Assembly (NCBI GenBank): GCA_038143065.1
Contig: JAYQLI010000035.1
Span: forward strand, 576,001 to 640,000
Direction: 5' to 3'
DNA: 64,000 nt
Source: Rhodospirillales bacterium
GTDB taxonomy: Bacteria > Pseudomonadota > Alphaproteobacteria > Bin95
Numbering within the stretch: position 1 is the stretch's first letter; every line of letters starts with the position of its first letter. The translations under genes were made by a program, and so were the position numbers. Under the pieces are notes generated by a model that searched no databases, had not been told where the DNA came from, and worked only from the letters and a program-made list of their open reading frames with translations. Below are positions 51,575-64,000 of the stretch, one piece after another.

Positions 51575-52414
51575 TTAGTAGCTTGGGTTAGTAGAGTAAG
51601 GTGTCAGTTGAAGATCATGTGTCCAGACTGAACGATGCTGGCTGTGTAGGTACCAAAAAGCATTTGCAATCTCGCCTGCATCCATAACAATCTCTGGATT
51701 ATCAATTGCTTTTTGAGAGCCCGAGTGCCTGGAGAATCAATTAAGCCATCGATAATTACATTTGCTACATGAATATTGTGTTCTGAATACTCCTCTGTCA
51801 GCACTTGCGCCAATGTCCGCATCATAACTCGTGGATAATATAGAGATTGACCAGTTAGTCGTTTTCGGCCACGCAAAGAGCTGGAGTTATTAGAAATAAG
51901 GAACGTACCTGAGCCACGCTTACGCATCGCGGGCAAAACTTCTTTTGCCACGAGGAATGGACCACGACATGCGATATGCTGGGTCGTATCAAACATCTCT
52001 GTTGGGATATATTCTAACAACTCCATTTCTGGCGGGAGGTCCCGCCCCCTCCAGATAGCCAGCATTGTAGACCAACACTTCTGGATCTCCGGCTTCCTCT
52101 CTTATTTTGGCAAATGCAGCTTGGATTGACTCCTCAGATGAGAGATCAAGCTCAACCGTTAGGGCATCCCCACCTGCGTTATTAATTGCGGCCTCAAGGC
52201 CAGACGCATTAGAGGCAGTGCGGGTCGTCAAGATGGTACGAAAGCCTTCTGAAGCAAACTTTTGTGCAATAGCCCCACCTACACCCCAACGGGCAATAAT
52301 AGGAATATCAGCATCGTCTAGATTTTGACCATGCGCCAACCGCGTGTTGCGTCCGTCCGCCTGCCATTTTGAAGTTGCTCCAATCACCACCGCCACAGGC
52401 TTAGCTTGACCCAT
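51575..52414 (-). CDS. Atypical SDR-family oxidoreductase (two frameshifts)
   Basis: WGVGGAIAQKF, LVYNAG, SLRGR, HVANVIIDGLID; restored tail WTHDLQLTP. Confidence 0.8.
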
Positions 52415-52503
52415 TTTGACCCCCTGCTTTTATTTTAGACCATAGTTTAAGAAATTATTTTCCATAAATAGGAACGCTTAGAGAAGCTCTTTATCTATGC
52501 TCT

Positions 52504-52794
52504 TTATCTTTTAAGTTCGGTTTCGATGAATATGAATTCATAGGCGTTTACGTTGATAACATCATGTTCGACACCAGTTTCACGAAAATAAGGCTGACCA
52601 GCTACTAGATTAACTTCTGTTACTGACCCGTCCGAGGCCTCAATCGACAAAACTCCAGTTGTCATTGGCGTTACCATGTAATCCATTTCGTGTTTATGCC
52701 AACCTGTGGCAGCCCCCGGTGGAAACCGCCATTCTGTAACACGGATACGATCGTTATCGATTAAAATAGTGGGTATTGCAGACACTCTAGACAT
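52504..52794 (-). CDS. Cupin domain protein
   Basis: RVTEWRFPPGAATGWHKHEMDY..GVEHDVIN..FIETELK. Confidence 0.88.
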   Translation of the reverse strand: MSRVSAIPTILIDNDRIRVTEWRFPPGAATGWHKHEMDYMVTPMTTGVLSIEASDGSVTEVNLVAGQPYFRETGVEHDVINVNAYEFIFIETELKR

Positions 52795-52801
52795 AGTGCT
52801 C

Positions 52802-53966
52802 TTAAACCCCTTCGTATTGCCCTAATTCTGCTCTACGTACGATTGCCCAACGATATTGCTCAGGCCATAGAGCAAAGGCGTCTTCTTGCTCTAATGCTTC
52901 TGCCGCGTGGAGCGGCCAGAAAGGATTATGCATAAGTTCACGACCAATGCCGATTAGATCGGCTCTTCCAGCGGATAAAATATCTTCCGCTTGCTGAGGA
53001 TCAACGATACGCCCAACTGCCATTGTGCCAATGTCTGCATCTCGGCGAATTGTTTCTGCATACGGGACTTGGAAGCCTAGAGGTCGTTGCCCACCCTTAG
53101 GTAAAGGACGACCATCATCTTCAGCACGAAACGCTGGAGCGCCAGAAATGCCGCCTGCAGAGCAATCGATCACATCCACCCCTAAGGGATTTAAGTTCTT
53201 TAGCAAGTTTAACTGAGTCCTCGAGACACCAGCCGGCCGTATCAACCGCCGATACACGGAAGAAAAGTGGGAGATTGTCAGGCCATACTGCACGGACAGC
53301 TTCTGTTACCTCAAGCGCAAATCGCATTCTTCCAGCAAGCTCACCTCCATATTGATCATTTCTCTGGTTCGCTACGGGAGAGAGAAAACTATGGATCAAA
53401 TACCCATGGGCTCCATGAATCTCTATCACTTTAAAACCGGCCATTGCAGCGCGCTTTGCTGATGCAGCAAAATCCTCTACTAGGCTGGCAATCTCTCCCT
53501 CTGATAATGCGCGAGGGGTTTCCCATCCATCAGCAACAGGAACTGCCGATGGTGCTACTGTTTCCCAACCGCTGTCGCCCCAACTTGTGTCCCCTACCGA
53601 TACAGGTTTACCACCTGCCCAGGGTGGAGACGCAGAGGCCTTTCGACCAGCATGTGCAATCTGCAATCCCGGCACAGAACCCATCTGCTCTATAAAATTG
53701 GTTGTAGGTTTTAATGACTCTGCTTGCTCATCAGTCCAAATACCTAAGCACTTGGGTGTAATTCGTCCACGTGGCTCTACTGCTGTTGCTTCTGCAAAAA
53801 CCAACCCAACTCCACCGCGAGCAAACGTGGATAGGTGAGCAAACTGCCAATCTGAGGCAAGACCACTATTTGCGGAGTACATGCAAAGTGGAGATAGCAC
53901 CACGCGATTGGGCAGAGTAACACCGCGTAGTTCAAGCGGGCTAAAAAGTTTTGTTGTTTTTGACAT
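52802..53966 (-). CDS. NADH:flavin oxidoreductase (Old Yellow Enzyme, YqjM/NamA-like); frameshift near 53185
   Basis: NRVVLSPLCMY, QIAHAGRKAS, EIHGAHGYLIHSFLSP, GRELMHNPFW. Confidence 0.92.
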
Positions 53967-54131
53967 TTAAGCCTCCAAGTGCATCGTTGTTTAAATCCGT
54001 GTTCTTACAGTACGGCCATCGCCCATTTTAGGTGCGCTTTTCAAACAGGAGTAAAGTTTGCATTGGAGTAAGAATTCCCAGCCACACAAACTAAGCAATA
54101 AAGAGAAAGGTAATTCTCTTTATTTTACATT

Positions 54132-55686
54132 TTATTCCCATTCTATCGTTCCAGGTGGCTTTGAAGTTACATCGTAAGTCACTCGGTTAACGCCTCCCAC
54201 CTCATTAATTATTCGAGTTGCAACCCGGCCTAAAAATTCCATTTCAAACGGATAAAAATCCGCCGTCATCCCATCTGTCGATGTTACAGCCCGCAAAGCT
54301 AGTGCACTTTCATATGTACGCTCATCCCCCATCACCCCTACGGTTGATACAGGCAACAATACAGCAAAAGCTTGCCATATTTCATTGTACAATCCAGCCT
54401 TGCGTATCTCTTCAAGATATATGGCATCAGCTTTTCTTAGGGTTTCTAAGCGACCTTGCGTGATTTTCCCTGGAATTCTTATTGCTAGGCCAGGTCCTGG
54501 AAAGGGATGACGCCCCACAAAAGCATCTGGTAATCCCAACTCACGTCCAAGATCGCGCACCTCATCTTTGAACAACTCTCTCAATGGCTCTAGCAACTGC
54601 AAGTTCATACGCTCAGGCAGCCCGCCAACATTATGGTGGCTTTTAATTGTGACACTGGGCCCACCATCGAAAGATACGCTCTCGATTACATCGGGGTATA
54701 AGGTTCCTTGAGCGAGAAAATCTGCTCCCACCAATACGTTTTGCTTCTGCCTCAAAAATTTCGACAAATAGCCGTCCAATGGTCTTGCGCTTTACCTCTG
54801 GATCCGAAACACCATCTAAATCTCCAAGAAATTTACTTTCTGCTTCAACATGATGCAGCGGAATATTGAAGTGTTGTCTAAATAATGAAACTACCTCTTC
54901 AGCTTCCCCCAATCGGAGCATGCCCGTATCCACAAATATGCACTGTAATTGGTCTCCAATAGCTTCATGGATAAGCACTGCTGCTACAGCGCTATCTACA
55001 CCACCAGACAGGCCACAAATTACTTTCCCGTCGCCGACCTTTGCGCGGATACGAGCAATTTCCTCTTCCCTAAATTTTGCCATTGTCCAGTCACCGGAAC
55101 AAAAGGCGACATTTTTAACAAAATTGCTTATAAGAGCGGCCCCATCTGGCGTATGCACAACTTCTGGATGGAACTGCACCCCAAAATACCCAAAGGCCTC
55201 ATCTGCGATAGCGGCATAGGGTGCGTTAGGCGTTTTAGCAATAACTTTGAAGCCATCAGGCAAAGCTGAAACCGCATCTCCATGGCTCATCCAAACCTGA
55301 TATTTTCCACCAGCCGACCAAACTCCATCGAACAAAGCTGAATTCTCGACAACCTCAATCTGCGCGCGGCCAAACTCACGTTTTTCTGAATTAGTAACAA
55401 GCCCTCCCAGCTGATGAGCCATAGCCTGCTGGCCATAGCAAATACCCAAGACCGGAACGCCTAAATTGAAAACACATTCATCCGCTTGGGGAGCCGATGC
55501 ATTAGTTATGCTAGAGGGTCCGCCTGAAAGAATAATCCCTTTTGGATCATATTCTTTTAGCGTTTCTTGAATAACCTTGTTGAAGGGCCAAATCTCGCAA
55601 TAAACACCTGCTTCCCGTACCCTTCGCGCAATTAATTGAGTTACCTGAGAACCAAAATCGACAATAAGAATACGATCGTGCATCAA
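54132..55686 (-). CDS. guaA: GMP synthase, glutamine-hydrolysing (frameshift near 54740)
   Basis: [42 protein letters not shown]. Confidence 0.97.
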
Positions 55687-55696
55687 AAATCTTTCA

Positions 55697-57241
<1,545 letters not shown>

Positions 57242-57925: not shown

Positions 57926-58287
57926 TAGTTTCCTAAATCCTGAGTAATTGGCGGGATTCAGATGAAGATCATTATCATCACAGGCCGCCAGAAGACATAC
58001 TACTTTTGAACAGCCCGTCTGTTTTTCACACGACATGGACCAACCCATCAACAAGATAACGTTTCTCATGCCTGTGCTCGTTGATAATGGAGCTAGAACC
58101 AAAAAGACCTCCAAATCCATACTCACTGTCACTTTTGGTTCTTGCAAGTTTTCGTAATTTCCAAAATAGGGCAGTCATAAATTGTTTGCGAAAATTACAG
58201 TCGGCTTGCGCTTGGCTATACCATCGTTTCCTCGGGTACAAAAGCATAGATCAAAATGAAAAATCCCATAGAATCAAAGGTTAAATA

Positions 58288-58302
58288 TTCACATTTTGTG
58301 AA
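58288..58302. promoter_or_regulatory. Perfect inverted repeat TTCACA-TTT-TGTGAA, candidate operator for the cytochrome locus
   Basis: Seen directly, 75 nt upstream of ATG 58378 in the divergent intergenic region. Confidence 0.4.
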
Positions 58303-58377
58303 GTAACGAGCTTTCGTCCTAGGCAGATGGGTGTTAAGCTTATGCGCAAATTTGAATCTTAGTGATGGAAACGCGCC

Positions 58378-59262
58378 ATGAGACTCTCATTTTCCACTTT
58401 AGTGTTGGCTGGCCTGTTAGGGATCATGTCATTGACATCTACAGGTGCGATTGCTGCTAGCAATGTAGGTCCAAAAAAATGTCAAGAATGCCATCGAGCT
58501 GAGCATGATGTATGGAAAGGTAGCGCGCATTTTAAGGCTTTCCGAGGTGCTCACAAAGCGAAAGGTGCTAAGGAAATAGCCAAAGCATCAGGTGGCGGCA
58601 AATCAATGAGACGAAACCAGGTGTGTGTGGCATGCCATTACACCGAAGTAGGCGGAAAGCCAAAAGCAGGCCCTTCTTGTGAGAGCTGTCATGGCGGCGC
58701 CTCAGAGTGGCTTTCGATACACAATGATAAAGCAATGCCGAAAGAGCAACGATTAGCTGCTGCTAAGGACGCTGGGATGATTCATTCCTCAATGCTTTTT
58801 GAAATTGCTCAAAATTGTAATGGCTGCCACACAATGCAGAATGTAGACCCTGCAATGGCTGGGAAACTCATTGATGCTGGCCATCCTATCAATGGTGATT
58901 ACGAGTTAGTTAAGTATAGCCAAGGTCAAGTTCGGCATCGTTTCTACCCTCCTGACGTCACCGTAAACCAAGAAATGTCGAAGTCCGAATTGGCTAATAT
59001 GTTTCTAACAGGTCATGCTGTTGGTCTGGTTTATGCGACTAACGGTATCGCTAAGTCCGATAATGCCAAGTACAAGGCCGAAATGCAGAAGCGGGTAGAT
59101 GCAGCCACCAAGGCTCTAGGAGCAGTAAAAGATCAAATTCCTGCTGCTAATAAGCTTCTATCAAGCCCTAACGAAGGTAATGCTAGAAGTTTTATTACTG
59201 AAATCACTGGTAAAGATCTATCAGCCGCAGTAGGTGCGATGTTGCCCAGCAGCTACAAGTAA
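58378..59262 (+). CDS. Exported tetraheme c-type cytochrome (c554-like N-terminal domain plus helical C-terminal domain)
   Basis: Sec-type signal peptide ending AIA; four CxxCH motifs: CQECH, CVACH, CESCH, CNGCH. Confidence 0.9.
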   Translation: MRLSFSTLVLAGLLGIMSLTSTGAIAASNVGPKKCQECHRAEHDVWKGSAHFKAFRGAHKAKGAKEIAKASGGGKSMRRNQVCVACHYTEVGGKPKAGPSCESCHGGASEWLSIHNDKAMPKEQRLAAAKDAGMIHSSMLFEIAQNCNGCHTMQNVDPAMAGKLIDAGHPINGDYELVKYSQGQVRHRFYPPDVTVNQEMSKSELANMFLTGHAVGLVYATNGIAKSDNAKYKAEMQKRVDAATKALGAVKDQIPAANKLLSSPNEGNARSFITEITGKDLSAAVGAMLPSSYK

Positions 59263-59428
59263 GGTTTTTAGGGAATTAACCTAGTGCCTCTTATTAAACG
59301 CGAGCTCAAGACCTTAAAACCAAGCTGCAGGTTACCTTTAGTTTTGGGATTTTGTCTTACTGTTGAGGGATCCGGAAAAATATTTGTTAGTTCGCATCAT
59401 CACAGCTTAGGATCTAAAGGAGGACGGG

Positions 59429-61069
59429 TTGGCAGTTGCAACTAGGTTAACAAGGCCTCAACGCTGGGACAGGCCTTTTGACCCTGCGATGTCGCAGAGT
59501 CGACTAGATTTGTTGATGCAGAATTCTGTTATTGATGCGATAGATTCTGAAGCTTTCCCTAAGACAATTCCTCTATCGGGAATTATCGAAAATGATACTA
59601 GATTATTACAATTTTCGGCCGGAGAAATTGTTGTACGTGAAGGGGACTATGGAAATTCAGCTTTTTTGGTACTTTCCGGTAAGGTTCAGGTTGTAATTAA
59701 TCCTCCGCTATCTGCAGAACAAATTGGACGGGAAAACACACCTCCATCTCGATTTAGCAACGCTGTCGCTCAAATATTTAGACGCAGAACGGCACCTGAA
59801 GTTCGTGACCTCAATCGTTATGGACAATTAGGTCTTTCAAACTCGGATCAAACTTCGAATTCAGATAAACAGGCTGTTTTCCTTCAAGATTTTCCGATGA
59901 TATTAAGGGATAGAGACACGGCCGAAATTGGAGAAGGAAGTCTTTTTGGAGAGCTTGCTGCTCTTGGGCGTACACCCCGGTCGGCTTCAATTATTTGCAG
60001 TGAAGACGCTGAACTTTTGGAAATTCGCTGGCAAGGCCTCAGGGAATTACGCAGATTTGATGCTGGATGGCGTCGCCAAATAGACGAAAATTACAGGAAA
60101 AATGCTCTTTTAGCGCACCTTCAGGATACCCCTCTTTTCTCAAAGCTTTCGTCGGAGACTCTCGCTACGATAGCATCAGCTACATTATTTGAGACATATG
60201 GGTCTTTTGATTGGAGTTCTTCTTTTCAGCGGTCTGGAGCAGAAGATGCCCTGCGCAGCGAGCCCGTTATTGCTCGAGAAGGTGAGTATCCCGATGGCCT
60301 ACTCTTAGTGAGAGCAGGTTTTGCGAGAGTTTCCGTCAAGCAAGGTTCTGGGGAGCGAACGCTAACATACTTGGGAGCTGGGGACACATTTGGACTGCAT
60401 GAGTTATATCACGGCTGGCAGGGCTCAGAAGCGCTAAATGGAACAACTCTTAGAGCAATAGGCTATGTAGATGCTCTGAGGGTCCCAACCCACATTCTAG
60501 AGGAACATGTTTTCCCTACGCTTTTATCTGCACCTGACAGTCTTCTAGATTTTGCGCGACGTCCGTTAGCGGAAGACGCAATGCAAGAATGGTTAGTTGA
60601 GCAACGGTTCATCAACGGAACAAAAGGTATGCTCATTAACCTCGATAAGTGCGTGAGGTGCGATGATTGTGTGCGTGCGTGTGCCTCTACGCATGACGGG
60701 AACCCTAGATTTATCCGACACGGTAAGACTCACGATCACTGGATGGTAGCAAACGCCTGTATGCATTGTGCTGATCCAGTTTGCATGATCGGGTGCCCAA
60801 CCGGGGCGATCCATCGATCACTTACTGGAGGATCCGTTGTCATAAATGACGATACATGTATCGGTTGCGGAACGTGCGCTAATTCTTGTCCCTACAATAA
60901 CATTAGATTGGTGGAAATTAGAGATTTAGCAGGTCGGCCTGTTCAGGATGAAGCAACCGGAACACCAATCCGCAAAGCGACAAAATGTGATTTATGCTCA
61001 GGAATTCCAGGCGGCCCTGCATGTGAACGGGCCTGTGCTCATGGCGCGCTACAGCGTGTTAGTTTTTAG
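59429..61069 (+). CDS. Fusion of two cyclic-nucleotide-binding domains and a four-[4Fe-4S] ferredoxin
   Basis: AAAGGAGG SD before TTG. CNB1: VVREGDYGNSAFLVLSGKV..FGELAALGRTPRSAS. CNB2: IAREGEYPDGLLLVRAG..LGAGDTFG. Sixteen Cys in four groups of DmsB/NrfC type. Confidence 0.9.
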   Translation: MAVATRLTRPQRWDRPFDPAMSQSRLDLLMQNSVIDAIDSEAFPKTIPLSGIIENDTRLLQFSAGEIVVREGDYGNSAFLVLSGKVQVVINPPLSAEQIGRENTPPSRFSNAVAQIFRRRTAPEVRDLNRYGQLGLSNSDQTSNSDKQAVFLQDFPMILRDRDTAEIGEGSLFGELAALGRTPRSASIICSEDAELLEIRWQGLRELRRFDAGWRRQIDENYRKNALLAHLQDTPLFSKLSSETLATIASATLFETYGSFDWSSSFQRSGAEDALRSEPVIAREGEYPDGLLLVRAGFARVSVKQGSGERTLTYLGAGDTFGLHELYHGWQGSEALNGTTLRAIGYVDALRVPTHILEEHVFPTLLSAPDSLLDFARRPLAEDAMQEWLVEQRFINGTKGMLINLDKCVRCDDCVRACASTHDGNPRFIRHGKTHDHWMVANACMHCADPVCMIGCPTGAIHRSLTGGSVVINDDTCIGCGTCANSCPYNNIRLVEIRDLAGRPVQDEATGTPIRKATKCDLCSGIPGGPACERACAHGALQRVSF

Positions 61070-61080
61070 AAGGAAACGCT

Positions 61081-61908
61081 GTGGTGCACACCCCTAAATC
61101 AACTTTATCGTTTGGATTGACCTTTTCTCTTGTTGCCGTGTTATGCCTTATAGGTCTAGCCTATTTTTCTCACCAGGAAATGTTGAACCTAAGTGACGCC
61201 TCTTTTGTGACTGTCTGGATACTTCTTGGGATAATGTTTTCACTAGGTATTTTTAATATACGAAAACGTATGTCAGCTCTTCCTCTAGGGCGAGCCGCTT
61301 ACTGGCTGACGTTGCATGTAGTGCTAGGTTTCTTTGCAGTCGGCACATTTCTTGTTCATACTAATTATGTTTGGCCTACCGGAGTATATGAACAGCTGTT
61401 GGCTAGTCTTTTCTGGCTCACAGCAGTCTCAGGGATGTTAGGTTGGCTGTATCAGAGAGCGATACCGCGGCGGCTATCCAGAATCGGGTATGAAGTTATC
61501 TTTGAGCGCGTCCCTGCTGAAATTGCACATCTTCGTGAAGAAGCAGAAGCGGCTGCTCTTGAAGCAGTAGGTAACAGTGGTGAACCAACCTTGGGCCGTT
61601 TCTACTCAGAAACATTAGATTGGTTTTTTCAGCGCCCACGTTTTGCCATATCGCATCTCTTGGGAACTGGTGCTGCTGCTCATTGGCTAGAGCATCGTAT
61701 CGCTGCTGTACGAAGATTGTTAGGTTCTGCCGAACTAAAAGCACTTGATGAAATCGAAAAAATAGCTCAACTAAAGATTTCAGTAGATGCTCACTATGCA
61801 ATTCAACGATCACTCAAACTTTGGGTTTTTGCGCACGTTTTGCTGACTTCAGCAACCCTCTCATTGTCTGTTTGGCATCTCATTTTGGTTCATGTGTACG
61901 CTAGATGA
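61081..61908 (+). CDS. Integral membrane protein with two His-x13-His helices (putative diheme cytochrome b)
   Basis: About 5 TM segments; HVVLGFFAVGTFLVH and HVLLTSATLSLSVWH. Confidence 0.7.
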   Translation: MVHTPKSTLSFGLTFSLVAVLCLIGLAYFSHQEMLNLSDASFVTVWILLGIMFSLGIFNIRKRMSALPLGRAAYWLTLHVVLGFFAVGTFLVHTNYVWPTGVYEQLLASLFWLTAVSGMLGWLYQRAIPRRLSRIGYEVIFERVPAEIAHLREEAEAAALEAVGNSGEPTLGRFYSETLDWFFQRPRFAISHLLGTGAAAHWLEHRIAAVRRLLGSAELKALDEIEKIAQLKISVDAHYAIQRSLKLWVFAHVLLTSATLSLSVWHLILVHVYAR

Positions 61909-63973
61909 CTGATACAACAAACCGATACGATCACGATAGCTCGCCTTATGAACGACCTAATCTTCCCTTCCGCTGTGGGCGAGAGGCGGCGTTTGGGAAA
62001 CCATGCCCCAGAGGGCCCACTCTTAATGGAGCTTGTCAAGGGATCTCAGACTGTACCCCGTTTCAAACGAGAAAATCAGTAGTAGACGAAGAGACTGGCG
62101 AACAACGTGAAATATTACGCTGGGAGTGCCGGAGACCCACATGGGCAGGAGGCCCTTGCTCACAAGGCCCTAAACCGGATGGAACTTGTTCTTGTACCCA
62201 CCCACCCTGCGCGCCTCGCCCCACCATCCGTCGTCAACGTGGACGATGGGCTCTTTTGGCTGTAGCTGCGGTTTTTGCCCTTGCCATTGCACTAATGGGT
62301 TTTGGAGGTGCACCTACGCTACCAAGTTCTATCGATCCCGGACAGCTATCTGGTAAACACGCCCAATTTACGGCAGCTGAGGGTTGCGTGGCATGTCATG
62401 ACAGCCATTCCACCTCGCTCGTTGGATGGGTAGGAGCGGTATTTAGTAAAAATACAATTTCTGACTCCTGTGTTTCATGCCATTCCTTTGGTAAAGAACC
62501 GGTTATTGGAAATGAGCCTTCGAAAAATGCCTTGTTGTTCGCAGCCCATAACTGGAATTTTCCAAATAATCCCGATGCGCTAGCCACTAATTGTCAGGGC
62601 TGCCATACAGAGCATAAGGGTGAACTAGCATCGATTACGCCGTTGGTAGATGGTCAGTGTGCGGGTTGCCATACTGAAAAATTTGACAATTTTTCAAAAG
62701 GACATCCTGAGTTCTCAAATACTTTCCCCAATCAAAATCCGCGCACAATAAAATTTTCTCACAGTAATCACTTAGAAGAGTATTTCGCAGATAGTCGTTA
62801 CAAAGAGCTGGCGCCTAAAGAAAATTGTGTGTCATGCCACACTAAACAGGAAAATGGACGACTGTTACCCGGGAGTTTTGATACTGGGTGTGCTGGTTGT
62901 CATGAGCAAGCCATTCGAGAACAAGGCTTTGCTGTAATTGGTTTGCCTGAACTCAGTGATCCTACACTAACAGCAGATGGCGCTGAAACATGCGGTTTCT
63001 CCCAGGCAGAAATAGAGCCTGCAAAAACTCTAATAAGTGCAATTTCTGACTCTATAAGTTCACTTAATTCAGTATCGGAAGCATTTGAAAGAAATAACTC
63101 CTCAGATCTCCAAACAGCGGTAACTGCAGCCGCAGATACCGCGGACGCGCTCGCTGAAACTAAAACTGAACTTGAGGAGGCTTTTGATCGAGAAGAAGCA
63201 GTTTCGCTGGAATACCTTCCCGAAGTTTTATCATATCTTTTAAAACATCCTTCAGATGATTTAGACGCTTACAGCGAGGATGTTGCAAGCCTGCTAATTG
63301 AGCTTGCTCAAAATGGATATGAACCTCTATCGGAATTGCTCGAAGCGACGGGAGGCTCCGCGAACAATCTTTTGGCGGGTCTCTCTGATGAGCTCGTACA
63401 GCGTGTGGTCTGTGCCTGGACCGCTAACCAGGAATACGAAGCACTTAGAGATCCAGAACCAGGTAAAGGCTGGCAAGCCAGCCCTTATCAAATCAGTTAC
63501 ATGCCGACTGGTCACTCGGATAGCGTTGTTAGAAATTGGATTGAATTTTCTCTTAGTGAGGAGGTTCGTGAGAGTGATTTGGGAAATCAAATTACTGAAA
63601 AAATGCTTCATCCTGCGGATGGACCAGGACGCTGCTTTAAGTGCCATGTTGCCCCGGTATCAGAATCTTCTTTACCGACCGTATCTTGGAAAATTCCCAG
63701 TGAAGACCTGCGACCTTTCACCGAGTTTAATCATACCCCTCACTTGAATGTCTTAAACGTTGGTTCGGGCTGCGCGACTTGCCATCAAAGCGTGGAAACT
63801 TCAAAAGTTACCTCTGGAAAAGAAAAAAAAATTCTCCTTCACACCCTAAAGAATTTGGACCAATTAAAAAATCTGTTTGTAGCGATTGCCATAAAGAAGG
63901 TGGTGTGCAACAAACCTGTGTAACTTGTCATCAATATCATACCGAGCCAACTATCAGAAAACGACAAAATTAA
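61905..63973 (+). CDS. Membrane-anchored decaheme c-type cytochrome with Cys-rich N-terminus (frameshift in A-run 63823-63831)
   Basis: Eight CxxCH in ORF 61905..63923 (CVACH, CVSCH, CQGCH, CAGCH, CVSCH, CAGCH, CFKCH, CATCH) plus CSDCH and CVTCH in ORF 63779..63973; single TM after RRQRGR. Confidence 0.88.
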
Positions 63974-63984
63974 GGAACGACGAC

Positions 63985-64000
63985 ATGACGAACCAGAGCT
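63985..64000 (+). CDS. Probable start of the next gene in the operon (MTNQS.., truncated by the window end)
   Basis: TAAGGA SD-like sequence overlaps the decaheme stop; ATG at 63985. Only five codons are visible. Confidence 0.4.

Follow-up and report, generated by a model that had tools for sequence, protein, structure and literature searches.

The ptdABCDEFG cluster of a Rhodospirillales bacterium and its possible role in cyclic-nucleotide-gated electron export

A 64,000-nucleotide stretch of DNA from a Rhodospirillales bacterium (GCA_038143065.1, contig JAYQLI010000035.1, positions 576,001 to 640,000; G000:C35:576001-640000, hereafter the window) ends in a run of genes for multihaem cytochromes, an iron–sulphur (Fe-S) protein with cyclic nucleotide (cNMP)-binding domains and a membrane protein with paired histidines. 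The locus raises the question of what this set of redox proteins is, whether it has been described, and from where to where it would carry electrons. The original prediction, made from the window, took it for an undescribed system. The cluster is the ptdABCDEFG operon, matched by composition one for one, and it may constitute an NAD(P)H-fed, possibly cNMP-gated chain that exports electrons to an acceptor located at the outer membrane or outside it, a reading whose chances we put at about even. The 20 kb around the window end were read as a single locus (L002, in which a coordinate equals the window coordinate minus 57999), and the features of the cluster are as follows.

58378..59262, + strand: ptdD, exported c554-like tetrahaem cytochrome c of 294 residues; four CxxCH motifs, hydrophobic N-terminal signal, Pfam Cytochrome_C554
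59429..61069, + strand: ptdE, signal-less cytoplasmic protein of 546 residues with two cNMP domains and four [4Fe-4S] motifs; Pfam cNMP_binding and Fer4 families
61081..61908, + strand: ptdF, membrane protein of 275 residues with five predicted transmembrane (TM) helices and two His-x13-His pairs (putative di-haem b); from its ligands and an AlphaFold model
61905..63923, + strand: ptdG, main frame of 672 residues with a Cys-rich N-terminus, one TM helix and 8 of 10 CxxCH; open reading frame (ORF) and Pfam Paired_CXXCH_1
63815..63823, + strand: run of nine A at which the assembly breaks the ptdG reading frame; read directly in the sequence
63779..63973, + strand: ptdG tail in a shifted frame, with the last two CxxCH and the true stop; an ORF matching residues 710-761 of the 762-residue L013 orthologue
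63985..64000, continuing past the window as L002 5986-7745, + strand: ptdA, pentahaem; ATG at 63985, five CxxCH
L002 7778-9364, + strand: ptdB, 528 residues, barrel in the structure model; no family match in sequence
L002 9416-10719, + strand: ptdC, FAD/NAD(P)H/[2Fe-2S] reductase; FAD_binding_6, NAD_binding_1 and Fer2

The ORF listing of the window and the sequence downstream gives the order D-E-F-G-A-B-C, with all genes on the same strand; ptdF starts 11 nt past the ptdE stop, and ptdG overlaps ptdF by ATGA. The four co-oriented ORFs of the original prediction lie on the + strand where it had placed them, and the ORFs together with Pfam and NCBIfam searches agree with its description of an exported tetrahaem cytochrome, a signal-less protein with two cNMP domains and four [4Fe-4S] motifs, and a membrane protein with two His-x13-His pairs. 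The fifth gene that it thought probable at 63985 is present and encodes the pentahaem PtdA. That it saw no porin was an effect of the window edge: reading on downstream, as it had proposed, yields a barrel protein and an FAD/NAD(P)H reductase within 7 kb, in addition to the pentahaem. A molybdopterin subunit and NrfD, neither of which it had seen in the window, are also lacking from the seven-gene cluster according to family searches and neighbour comparison.

The ptdABCDEFG operon was defined by Elbon, Stewart and Glass (bioRxiv 10.1101/2023.11.21.568154). In the sections of that preprint covered here, its parts are PtdA, a pentahaem with a C-terminal extra domain; PtdB, a porin; PtdC, an FAD/NAD(P)-binding oxidoreductase; PtdD, a periplasmic tetrahaem; PtdE, a cNMP-binding protein with 4Fe-4S clusters; PtdF, a transmembrane ‘ferric reductase-like’ protein; and PtdG, a decahaem. 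The hosts given there are marine/saline Alpha- and Gammaproteobacteria, Nitrospirales and Planctomycetes and include nitrite oxidisers, and high transcription of ptdAB is reported. All seven component types are encoded together at the present locus, D, E, F and G in the window and A, B and C directly downstream on the same strand, and the haem counts agree: five in PtdA, four in PtdD and ten in PtdG (8 + 2 across an assembly frameshift). Because the seven products match the published list one for one, the cluster is not undescribed, and on this point the original prediction has to be withdrawn. The match is one of component list and order.

The published operon and the cluster seen here share their seven components, the marine/saline habitat and the host groups. 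Some differences are apparent against the covered sections of the preprint. The gene order here starts at D, although read as a circle it is unchanged, and it is the most frequent among the loci compared below (40/80). The preprint counts two 4Fe-4S clusters in PtdE, whereas 16 invariant Cys indicate four, and it calls PtdG periplasmic, whereas a conserved cytoplasmic N-terminus with eight Cys and a TM anchor are found here. Beyond those sections, the present analysis adds the four PtdE clusters, the contrast between a phosphate-binding cassette in the first cNMP-binding domain (CNB1) and a degenerate second one (CNB2), the anchored topology and eight-Cys N-terminus of PtdG, the two-module gene order, an 18-strand-like barrel and a modelled PtdE–PtdF interface. 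Going by the records listed in full-text literature searches, no other description of the ptd cluster was found; subscription journals lie outside this coverage, so that a peer-reviewed or follow-up version may exist.

In the assembly, each of ptdG, ptdA and ptdC is broken into two frames. Searches by tblastn with orthologues place the frame switches near L002 5824, 7324 and 10321, and in L013 and L014, two close relatives, each of these three proteins is encoded by one ORF. The cluster was compared with contigs of four public runs. At L002 5824 (window 63823) two bases are absent in every covering contig of X1, X5 and X16; at L002 7324 a C is inserted in the X1 contigs; and at L002 10321 a C is inserted in contigs of all three. 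The X1 contigs, which are 99-100% alike at the cluster with 0-1 differences per 600-1050 bases, carry a frame-restoring indel at all three places, and those of X5 and X16, which come from other studies, at two of the three. From this likeness X1 may represent the sample that gave the assembly. The PtdG count of ten haems is right for the real gene, because the contigs lack the two bases and relatives have a single ORF with ten CxxCH. The decahaem with one TM helix of the original prediction therefore stands for the true gene but not for the assembled ORF, which has eight CxxCH and leaves the other two in another frame.

The splitting of three genes out of seven would also be expected of a decaying pseudogene cluster. 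Against this stand the restored frames in the short-read contigs and the condition of the remaining genes: ptdE, ptdF and ptdB are undisrupted and full length in comparison with relatives, and ptdD aligns to its L013 orthologue from residue 11 onward. In addition, GMP synthase-like and IMP dehydrogenase-like ORFs upstream are split likewise, which points to assembly indels. As the contigs contradict the three frameshifts and upstream housekeeping ORFs are split in the same manner, we conclude that the breaks in ptdG, ptdA and ptdC are assembly indel errors and that the genes are intact; decay of the cluster is rejected on the short-read contigs and appears extremely improbable.

Split ORFs are also seen at window 51604-57235 (- strand), where they are short-chain dehydrogenase-like, old-yellow-enzyme-like, GMP synthase-like and IMP dehydrogenase-like, and a TonB-dependent receptor-like gene is split at L002 14278-16282 (- strand); these names come from reading the translations and not from a family search. 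Together with the three ptd frameshifts, the split neighbours point to frequent indel errors in the assembly, and gene calls on this genome need that caution.

The cluster recurs in many genomes. PtdE served as the search anchor: a PtdE pattern scan of a species-representative genome collection gave 198 stretches with relatives, and 80 loci with 51-77% PtdE identity were kept. Their neighbouring genes were identified by tblastn with the seven products of the window; the sequence and neighbour comparisons below cover up to 81 loci. By record title the kept loci belong to Rhodospirillales, Kiloniellales, Kordiimonadales, Minwuia, Xanthobacteraceae, Gammaproteobacteria, Nitrospinota and others, and these relatives include metagenome-assembled genomes from oxygen-deficient-zone and other marine samples. 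Among the 80 loci a match was obtained for PtdE in 80, PtdF in 79, PtdD in 78, PtdG in 76, PtdA in 66, PtdC in 63 and PtdB in 61, the misses falling mostly at contig ends. All seven genes are present in 36 of the 38 well-flanked loci (at least 9 kb upstream and at least 10.5 kb downstream), which represent Alpha- and Gammaproteobacteria and Nitrospinota. Loci that hold the full set include L055, in the complete genome titled Kordiimonadales bacterium IMCC3096 (CP018227), and those of Minwuia records. This arrangement is far beyond chance, and the co-occurrence that the original prediction had asked for is clear from the numbers for PtdF, PtdD and PtdG. The ptd cluster is evidently widespread and selected as a unit.

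Two gene orders recur. D-E-F-G-A-B-C is found in 40 of the 80 loci and A-B-D-E-F-G-C in 10, nearly all of the latter titled Nitrospina/Nitrospinota; D-E-F-G(-C) and A-B therefore behave as two modules. An all-against-all comparison of the other ORFs returned no extra family shared by more than 11 of the 81 loci, and some of those 11 are antisense ORFs. No cyclase, phosphodiesterase, ccm, regulator or iron-uptake gene is conserved beside the cluster in these loci, so the idea that a cyclase or ccm gene might form part of the unit finds no support there.

Within the class, PtdF is unevenly distributed. A PtdF profile finds 20 of 401 genomes drawn evenly from it, the present genome (G000) included, with the scores falling into two tiers. 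PtdF occurs in 7/9 genomes of the genus of the window, in 4/8 of a second genus of its family and in 0/7 of a third genus, and in none of 16 other families of the class. The tiers lie at ~360-413 and ~204-266 bits (for example G010:C3:53382-54170 and G419:C1:136223-137020), and two copies are present in G205 and G403. The lower tier corresponds to homologues of 33-37% identity in the second genus of the family. There may accordingly be two ptd subfamilies.

PtdE has no signal peptide, twin-arginine (Tat) signal or hydrophobic leader. Its match to Pfam cNMP_binding (PF00027) scores 88 bits (cut-off 27.5) and falls into three stretches, which on sequence grounds correspond to two predicted domains, the first split by an insert of ~65 residues. 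Fer4_11 and related Fer4 families of Pfam match as well. Sixteen Cys are invariant in 81/81 sequences and form four groups (CxxCxxCxxxC, CxxCxxxxCxxxC, CxxCxxCxxxC and CxxCx8CxxxC), so that four [4Fe-4S] clusters are expected. The best NCBIfam matches, among the 25 listed of 65, are four-cluster subunits of the DmsB/NrfC/HybA type, all far under cut-off (DmsB 53.3 against 214; NrfC 34.1 against 378). By its four Cys groups PtdE is thus of DmsB/NrfC type, without an equivalog score, a molybdoenzyme or NrfD partner, or a sign of Tat export.

The first cNMP domain bears the signature F-G-E-L-A-A-L-G-R-x-P-R-[TS]-A, in which G174, E175, R181 and R184 are invariant in 81/81 sequences. We take this signature to be the classical phosphate-binding cassette of PKA/PKG/CAP-type domains. 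With the Pfam match over cut-off and the invariant Gly-Glu and Arg residues, CNB1 is predicted to carry a conserved phosphate-binding cassette. In CNB2 the Gly is kept in 79/81 sequences and the Glu in 73/81, displaced by two residues, and this domain is probably not a canonical cNMP site. Elsewhere the genome has six matches over cut-off to the class-III cyclase domain (Guanylate_cyc).

PtdF contains H79-x13-H93 and H252-x13-H266, whose four His are invariant in 77/77 sequences and also in the 75-row alignment A2. Its AlphaFold model (mean local confidence, pLDDT, 92.4; predicted template-modelling score, pTM, 0.83) is all-helical, with four helices in residues 7-134, then an inserted helical segment (141-215) and a final long helix that extends to 274. 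The His pairs are located on the third helix and on the last (fifth) predicted membrane helix. The window PtdF has no Pfam or NCBIfam match, and DUF4405 matches 19/75 PtdF members with a best E of 0.0011. A PtdF profile against PDB sequences returns nothing meaningful (best E 0.066, an elongation factor), and the top matches of a wide VIA-align search are helical bundles, up to Z 10.8 for chemoreceptor sensor domains, inside the noise range. An Atlas cluster automatically named ‘Ferric reductase like transmembrane component’ scored 0.97 for PtdF and is treated as a lead only.

PtdE and PtdF were modelled as a full-length pair with own alignments, in three runs and with three controls. The complex score is 0.69 (runs 0.71, 0.69 and 0.69) and that of the best control 0.00; the score mark is reached by 58/80 solved complexes and 2/110 mismatched pairs, counts that are only rough for models with own alignments. 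Agreement between the runs is at least 94% of contacts, with a partner pLDDT of at least 82. At the interface PtdE residues 404-421 and 526-544 (Cys groups I and IV) face PtdF residues 62-76, 125-141 and 242-245, which are the loops and helix ends flanking H79 and H252. In DmsB/NrfC-type proteins Cys groups I and IV together build the end-of-chain cluster. The model fits an N-in, C-out topology of PtdF with one haem near each face, and the docking of PtdE on the cytoplasmic face of PtdF, which the original prediction had proposed to model, is supported by it. Residues 109-116 of PtdE, in the CNB1 insert, also contact PtdF in the model, which would place the sensor domain where docking could be affected.

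PtdD matches Pfam Cytochrome_C554 (E 2.4e-10, 41.7 bits against a cut-off of 20.8), and its best NCBIfam match is the cytochrome c554 of ammonia oxidisers (E 1.3e-13, under cut-off). PtdG matches Paired_CXXCH_1 (E 2.4e-11) and also c3/c7-type families, and weak matches to TmcA and HmcA are seen in both PtdG and PtdD, all under cut-offs. Ten CxxCH are present in 67 of the 68 complete PtdG orthologue ORFs. The protein begins with ~100-110 Cys-rich residues, followed by a basic stretch, a single TM helix and then the haems. In the N-terminus (residues 1-112, window 61905-62240) eight Cys are kept in 66-69 of 69 sequences and form two Cx9Cx9Cx5-6C repeats; the region has no Pfam or NCBIfam family match, and residues 1-112 gave no usable Atlas hit. 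This cytoplasmic eight-Cys module may bind a metal or an Fe-S cluster, or it may serve for docking.

Among NCBIfam models PtdA matches ExtKL best (E 9.3e-10, 37.6 bits against a cut-off of 250). It also matches cytochrome c552 in the PDB (5ze8, E 1.9e-7) and, weakly, NrfH/NapC, NrfB, c554 and Cytochrom_C552 (the NrfA family, E 7.1e-7). It contains five CxxCH and no CxxCK, and its signal looks cleavable, with no lipobox Cys after the hydrophobic stretch. In the sections of a 2025 study covered here, ExtKL and T. tepidum c552 fall into one pentahaem family, and extKL adjoins the porin gene extI in Geobacter (PMC11976967).

The PtdB model (pLDDT 80.9) is a β-barrel with ~20 long strands after residue 130. 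The model has 257 fold matches in the PDB at E ≤ 0.001, with a probability of 1.00 for the best, and the best is MOMP (7.4e-10). The protein ends in KF, and all 15 homologues printed end in F. From its modelled barrel fold and C-terminal aromatic residue PtdB classes as a predicted outer-membrane β-barrel porin. PtdC has an N-terminal hydrophobic helix with basic residues after it, and then the FAD_binding_6, NAD_binding_1 and Fer2 domains.

These components can be arranged in a single path. PtdC, which would be anchored in the inner membrane by its one helix, may take electrons from NAD(P)H via FAD to its [2Fe-2S] cluster and pass them on to cytoplasmic PtdE with its four [4Fe-4S] clusters. 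As in the model, PtdE would dock on PtdF from the cytoplasmic side through the Fe-S motifs at the end of its chain, and two putative bis-His b-haems of PtdF could then move the electrons across the inner membrane. The TM-anchored decahaem PtdG and after it the soluble tetrahaem PtdD would carry them through the periplasm, and the pentahaem PtdA, with the outer-membrane barrel PtdB, would deliver them to an acceptor such as Fe(III), Mn, O2 or another. The stretch from cytoplasmic Fe-S over membrane b-haems to periplasmic decahaem and tetrahaem had already been proposed in the original prediction as a continuous path, and it is the most economical reading of the invariant ligands, the synteny and the complex model. 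Such a chain would bypass the quinone pool and spend both reducing power and membrane potential, which is why the CNB1 pocket of PtdE is read as a possible valve that opens or closes it. Outward flow is preferred, since electrons moving inward to NAD(P)+ would oppose both redox potential and membrane potential, without a coupling module.

Several observations weigh against this export reading. At the CNB2 position of the Arg the 81 sequences have T in 50, S in 14, R in 7 and K in 5; there is no Arg in 74/81, although the window copy has one. PtdG has a weak NrfH-like match (E 0.0014), and a quinol link is therefore possible. For PtdF the label ‘ferric-reductase-like’ is weak: Pfam Ferric_reduct (PF01794) matches 1/75 members at E 0.027, the model has no Foldseek match in the PDB at E ≤ 0.001, and VIA-align gives STEAP4 at Z 7.3, STEAP1 at Z 7.0 and cytochrome b561 at Z 7.3, values within the noise quoted for helical proteins. 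We call PtdF a di-haem-type membrane protein of uncertain family, with presumed haems, and do not assign it to the ferric reductase domain family. The best PtdB matches are 18-strand substrate porins (MOMP, OprD/Occ, chitoporin and AlgE, E 7e-10 to 1e-7) rather than a broad sheath of MtrB type; no MtrB-type barrel is among its 50 best fold matches, which are 16-18-strand porins, and PtdA may not be threaded through the PtdB barrel. Two of the well-flanked loci, from Rhodospirillales records (L048 and L089), have the order D-E-F-G-C with no ptdA or ptdB within 10 kb, so that the inner-membrane module can evidently exist apart from the pentahaem and barrel pair. Many carriers are named as lineages that we take to be aerobic and marine, where respiratory metal reduction would presumably not be expected. 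We infer the direction of electron flow and, from synteny only, the hand-over from PtdC to PtdE. Finally, the function of ptd is called ‘completely unknown’ in the covered part of the preprint (bioRxiv 10.1101/2023.11.21.568154).

The same inner-membrane chain might instead end in the periplasm, with PtdA reducing a small soluble substrate (an N, S or Se oxyanion or a chelated metal) that enters via the porin PtdB. The resemblance of the PtdB model to 18-strand substrate channels would suit this role, as would the cleavable-looking PtdA signal without a lipobox Cys, the frequency of Nitrospinota loci among those found, and the weak matches of PtdA to Cytochrom_C552, NrfH and NrfB models. However, all PtdA family scores are far under their cut-offs, and PtdA has five CxxCH and no CxxCK, the motif that marks the NrfA active site; the neighbouring genes in the 81 loci point to no candidate substrate either. 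In the source sections covered here, PtdA shares a COG with NrfA and the cluster occurs in nitrite oxidisers (bioRxiv 10.1101/2023.11.21.568154), but ExtKL, the best named relative of PtdA, is linked to outer-membrane conduits (PMC11976967). A periplasmic end-point seems to us unlikely. Every cofactor of the chain is reversible in principle, and an outside donor might be oxidised at PtdA/PtdB and its electrons passed through PtdF, PtdE and PtdC to NAD(P)+, as a route to reductant in lithotrophs. The occurrence of the cluster in Nitrospinota agrees with such inward flow, as does the ammonia-oxidiser cytochrome c554 as best, under-cut-off NCBIfam match of PtdD. On bioenergetic grounds, however, electrons would run uphill twice, towards the negative inside and to the potential of NAD(P)H, in a cluster with no coupling-ion module, and most carriers are named as heterotrophic alphaproteobacterial lineages. 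We hold inward flow to be distinctly unlikely.

A further alternative concerns PtdE: its cNMP domains may not be nucleotide sensors at all, serving a structural role or binding another ligand, or the whole complex may be a redox sensor that carries no bulk flow. CNB-fold domains of the CRP/FNR family bind many ligands, the Arg and the Gly-to-Glu spacing of CNB2 depart from the cassette as described above, and the 81 loci have no cyclase or phosphodiesterase gene conserved beside the cluster. Yet the Gly-Glu...Arg-x-Pro-Arg of CNB1 is kept in 81/81 sequences across phyla, which is hard to explain without a phosphate-ribose ligand. Similarly, 5 + 4 + 10 CxxCH, four Fe-S clusters and a dedicated reductase would be a large investment for a sensor. 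This alternative is improbable to much the same degree as inward flow, and NAD(P)H-fed electron export is retained as the preferred reading.

Beyond ptdC the sequence contains, at L002 10885-16282 (- strand), an iron-siderophore/B12-type uptake-like set of genes (TonB-like protein, ABC ATPase, permease, periplasmic binding protein and TonB-dependent receptor), named from reading the translations and not from a family search. As other ptd loci lack a conserved set of this kind (9/81 have the ABC ATPase family), the uptake-like neighbours give no evidence for an iron role. A promoter and terminator scan of 58000-59500 found sites to be fewer or no more than in shuffled sequence. Two seawater RNA libraries have contigs over 23 and 25 of the 30 cluster bins at 92-99% likeness, which weakly supports transcription of this strain or a close one.

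By analogy, Ptd would work like the Tmc/Hmc complexes, NarH-NarI, the NOX/FRE enzymes and the Ext/Mtr conduits without belonging to their families. Tmc/Hmc of sulphate reducers have the same layout of periplasmic multihaem c, membrane di-haem b and cytoplasmic Fe-S subunits. Their cytoplasmic Fe-S subunit is HdrD-like with CCG domains and their b subunit NarI/HdrE-like, whereas PtdE combines four clusters of DmsB/NrfC type with cNMP domains and PtdF has no match to families of that sort. NarH-NarI similarly places a four-cluster Fe-S subunit on a five-helix di-haem b subunit, and PtdE matches narH at E 3e-10, under cut-off. NarI oxidises quinol and sends the electrons inward to a molybdoenzyme; in contrast, a molybdopterin subunit is absent from the ptd cluster, whose periplasmic side connects to c-haems.

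In the NOX/FRE/STEAP proteins electrons pass, as proposed for the Ptd chain, from NAD(P)H over a flavin to two stacked bis-His haems across the membrane and on to an outside acceptor. PtdF shares with the ferric reductase domain and NOX a His-x13-His spacing, located on its predicted membrane helices three and five. The Ptd chain differs in being split over PtdC, PtdE and PtdF with five Fe-S clusters between, and PtdF has five predicted membrane helices, not six, and a cytoplasmic helical insert; its likeness to NOX/FRE/STEAP in fold and sequence is at noise level.

ExtHIJKL of Geobacter sulfurreducens, in the sections of PMC11976967 covered here, resembles ptd in a pentahaem of the ExtKL/T. 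tepidum c552 kind beside the gene of an outer-membrane barrel (ExtI). However, the PtdA score for ExtKL is far under the cut-off, the ptd cluster has neither the rhodanese-like ExtH nor ExtJ, and nothing in the ext cluster corresponds to the inner-membrane module of Ptd. The porin–cytochrome conduit Mtr/Pcc is built from an MtrA/DmsE decahaem in a ~26-strand MtrB barrel, and Ptd does not qualify as one: the DmsE-family model gives E 0.0038 for PtdG and E 9.9e-9 for PtdA, both far under the 192-bit cut-off. Despite this family mismatch Ptd may work like an Mtr/Pcc conduit.

A more far-reaching proposal is that Ptd is a two-membrane bacterial counterpart of the eukaryotic NADPH oxidases and ferric reductases, that is, a quinone-independent NAD(P)H:extracellular-acceptor oxidoreductase whose throughput a cNMP bound to the Fe-S subunit would set directly, and which in aerobic marine bacteria and nitrite oxidisers would serve reductive iron acquisition or the formation of extracellular superoxide and not respiration, with the eight-Cys N-terminus of PtdG as a further metal site in the entry module. 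We offer it as speculation that is rather unlikely to hold in full. The carriers of ptd include abundant marine Alphaproteobacteria and Nitrospinota. If cNMP-controlled electron export from NAD(P)H is true, it would be a new way for bacteria of oxic waters to reduce extracellular iron, manganese or oxygen, and it would provide the first example in which an electron-transfer chain is the direct target of a cyclic nucleotide, with neither transcription nor a kinase in between.

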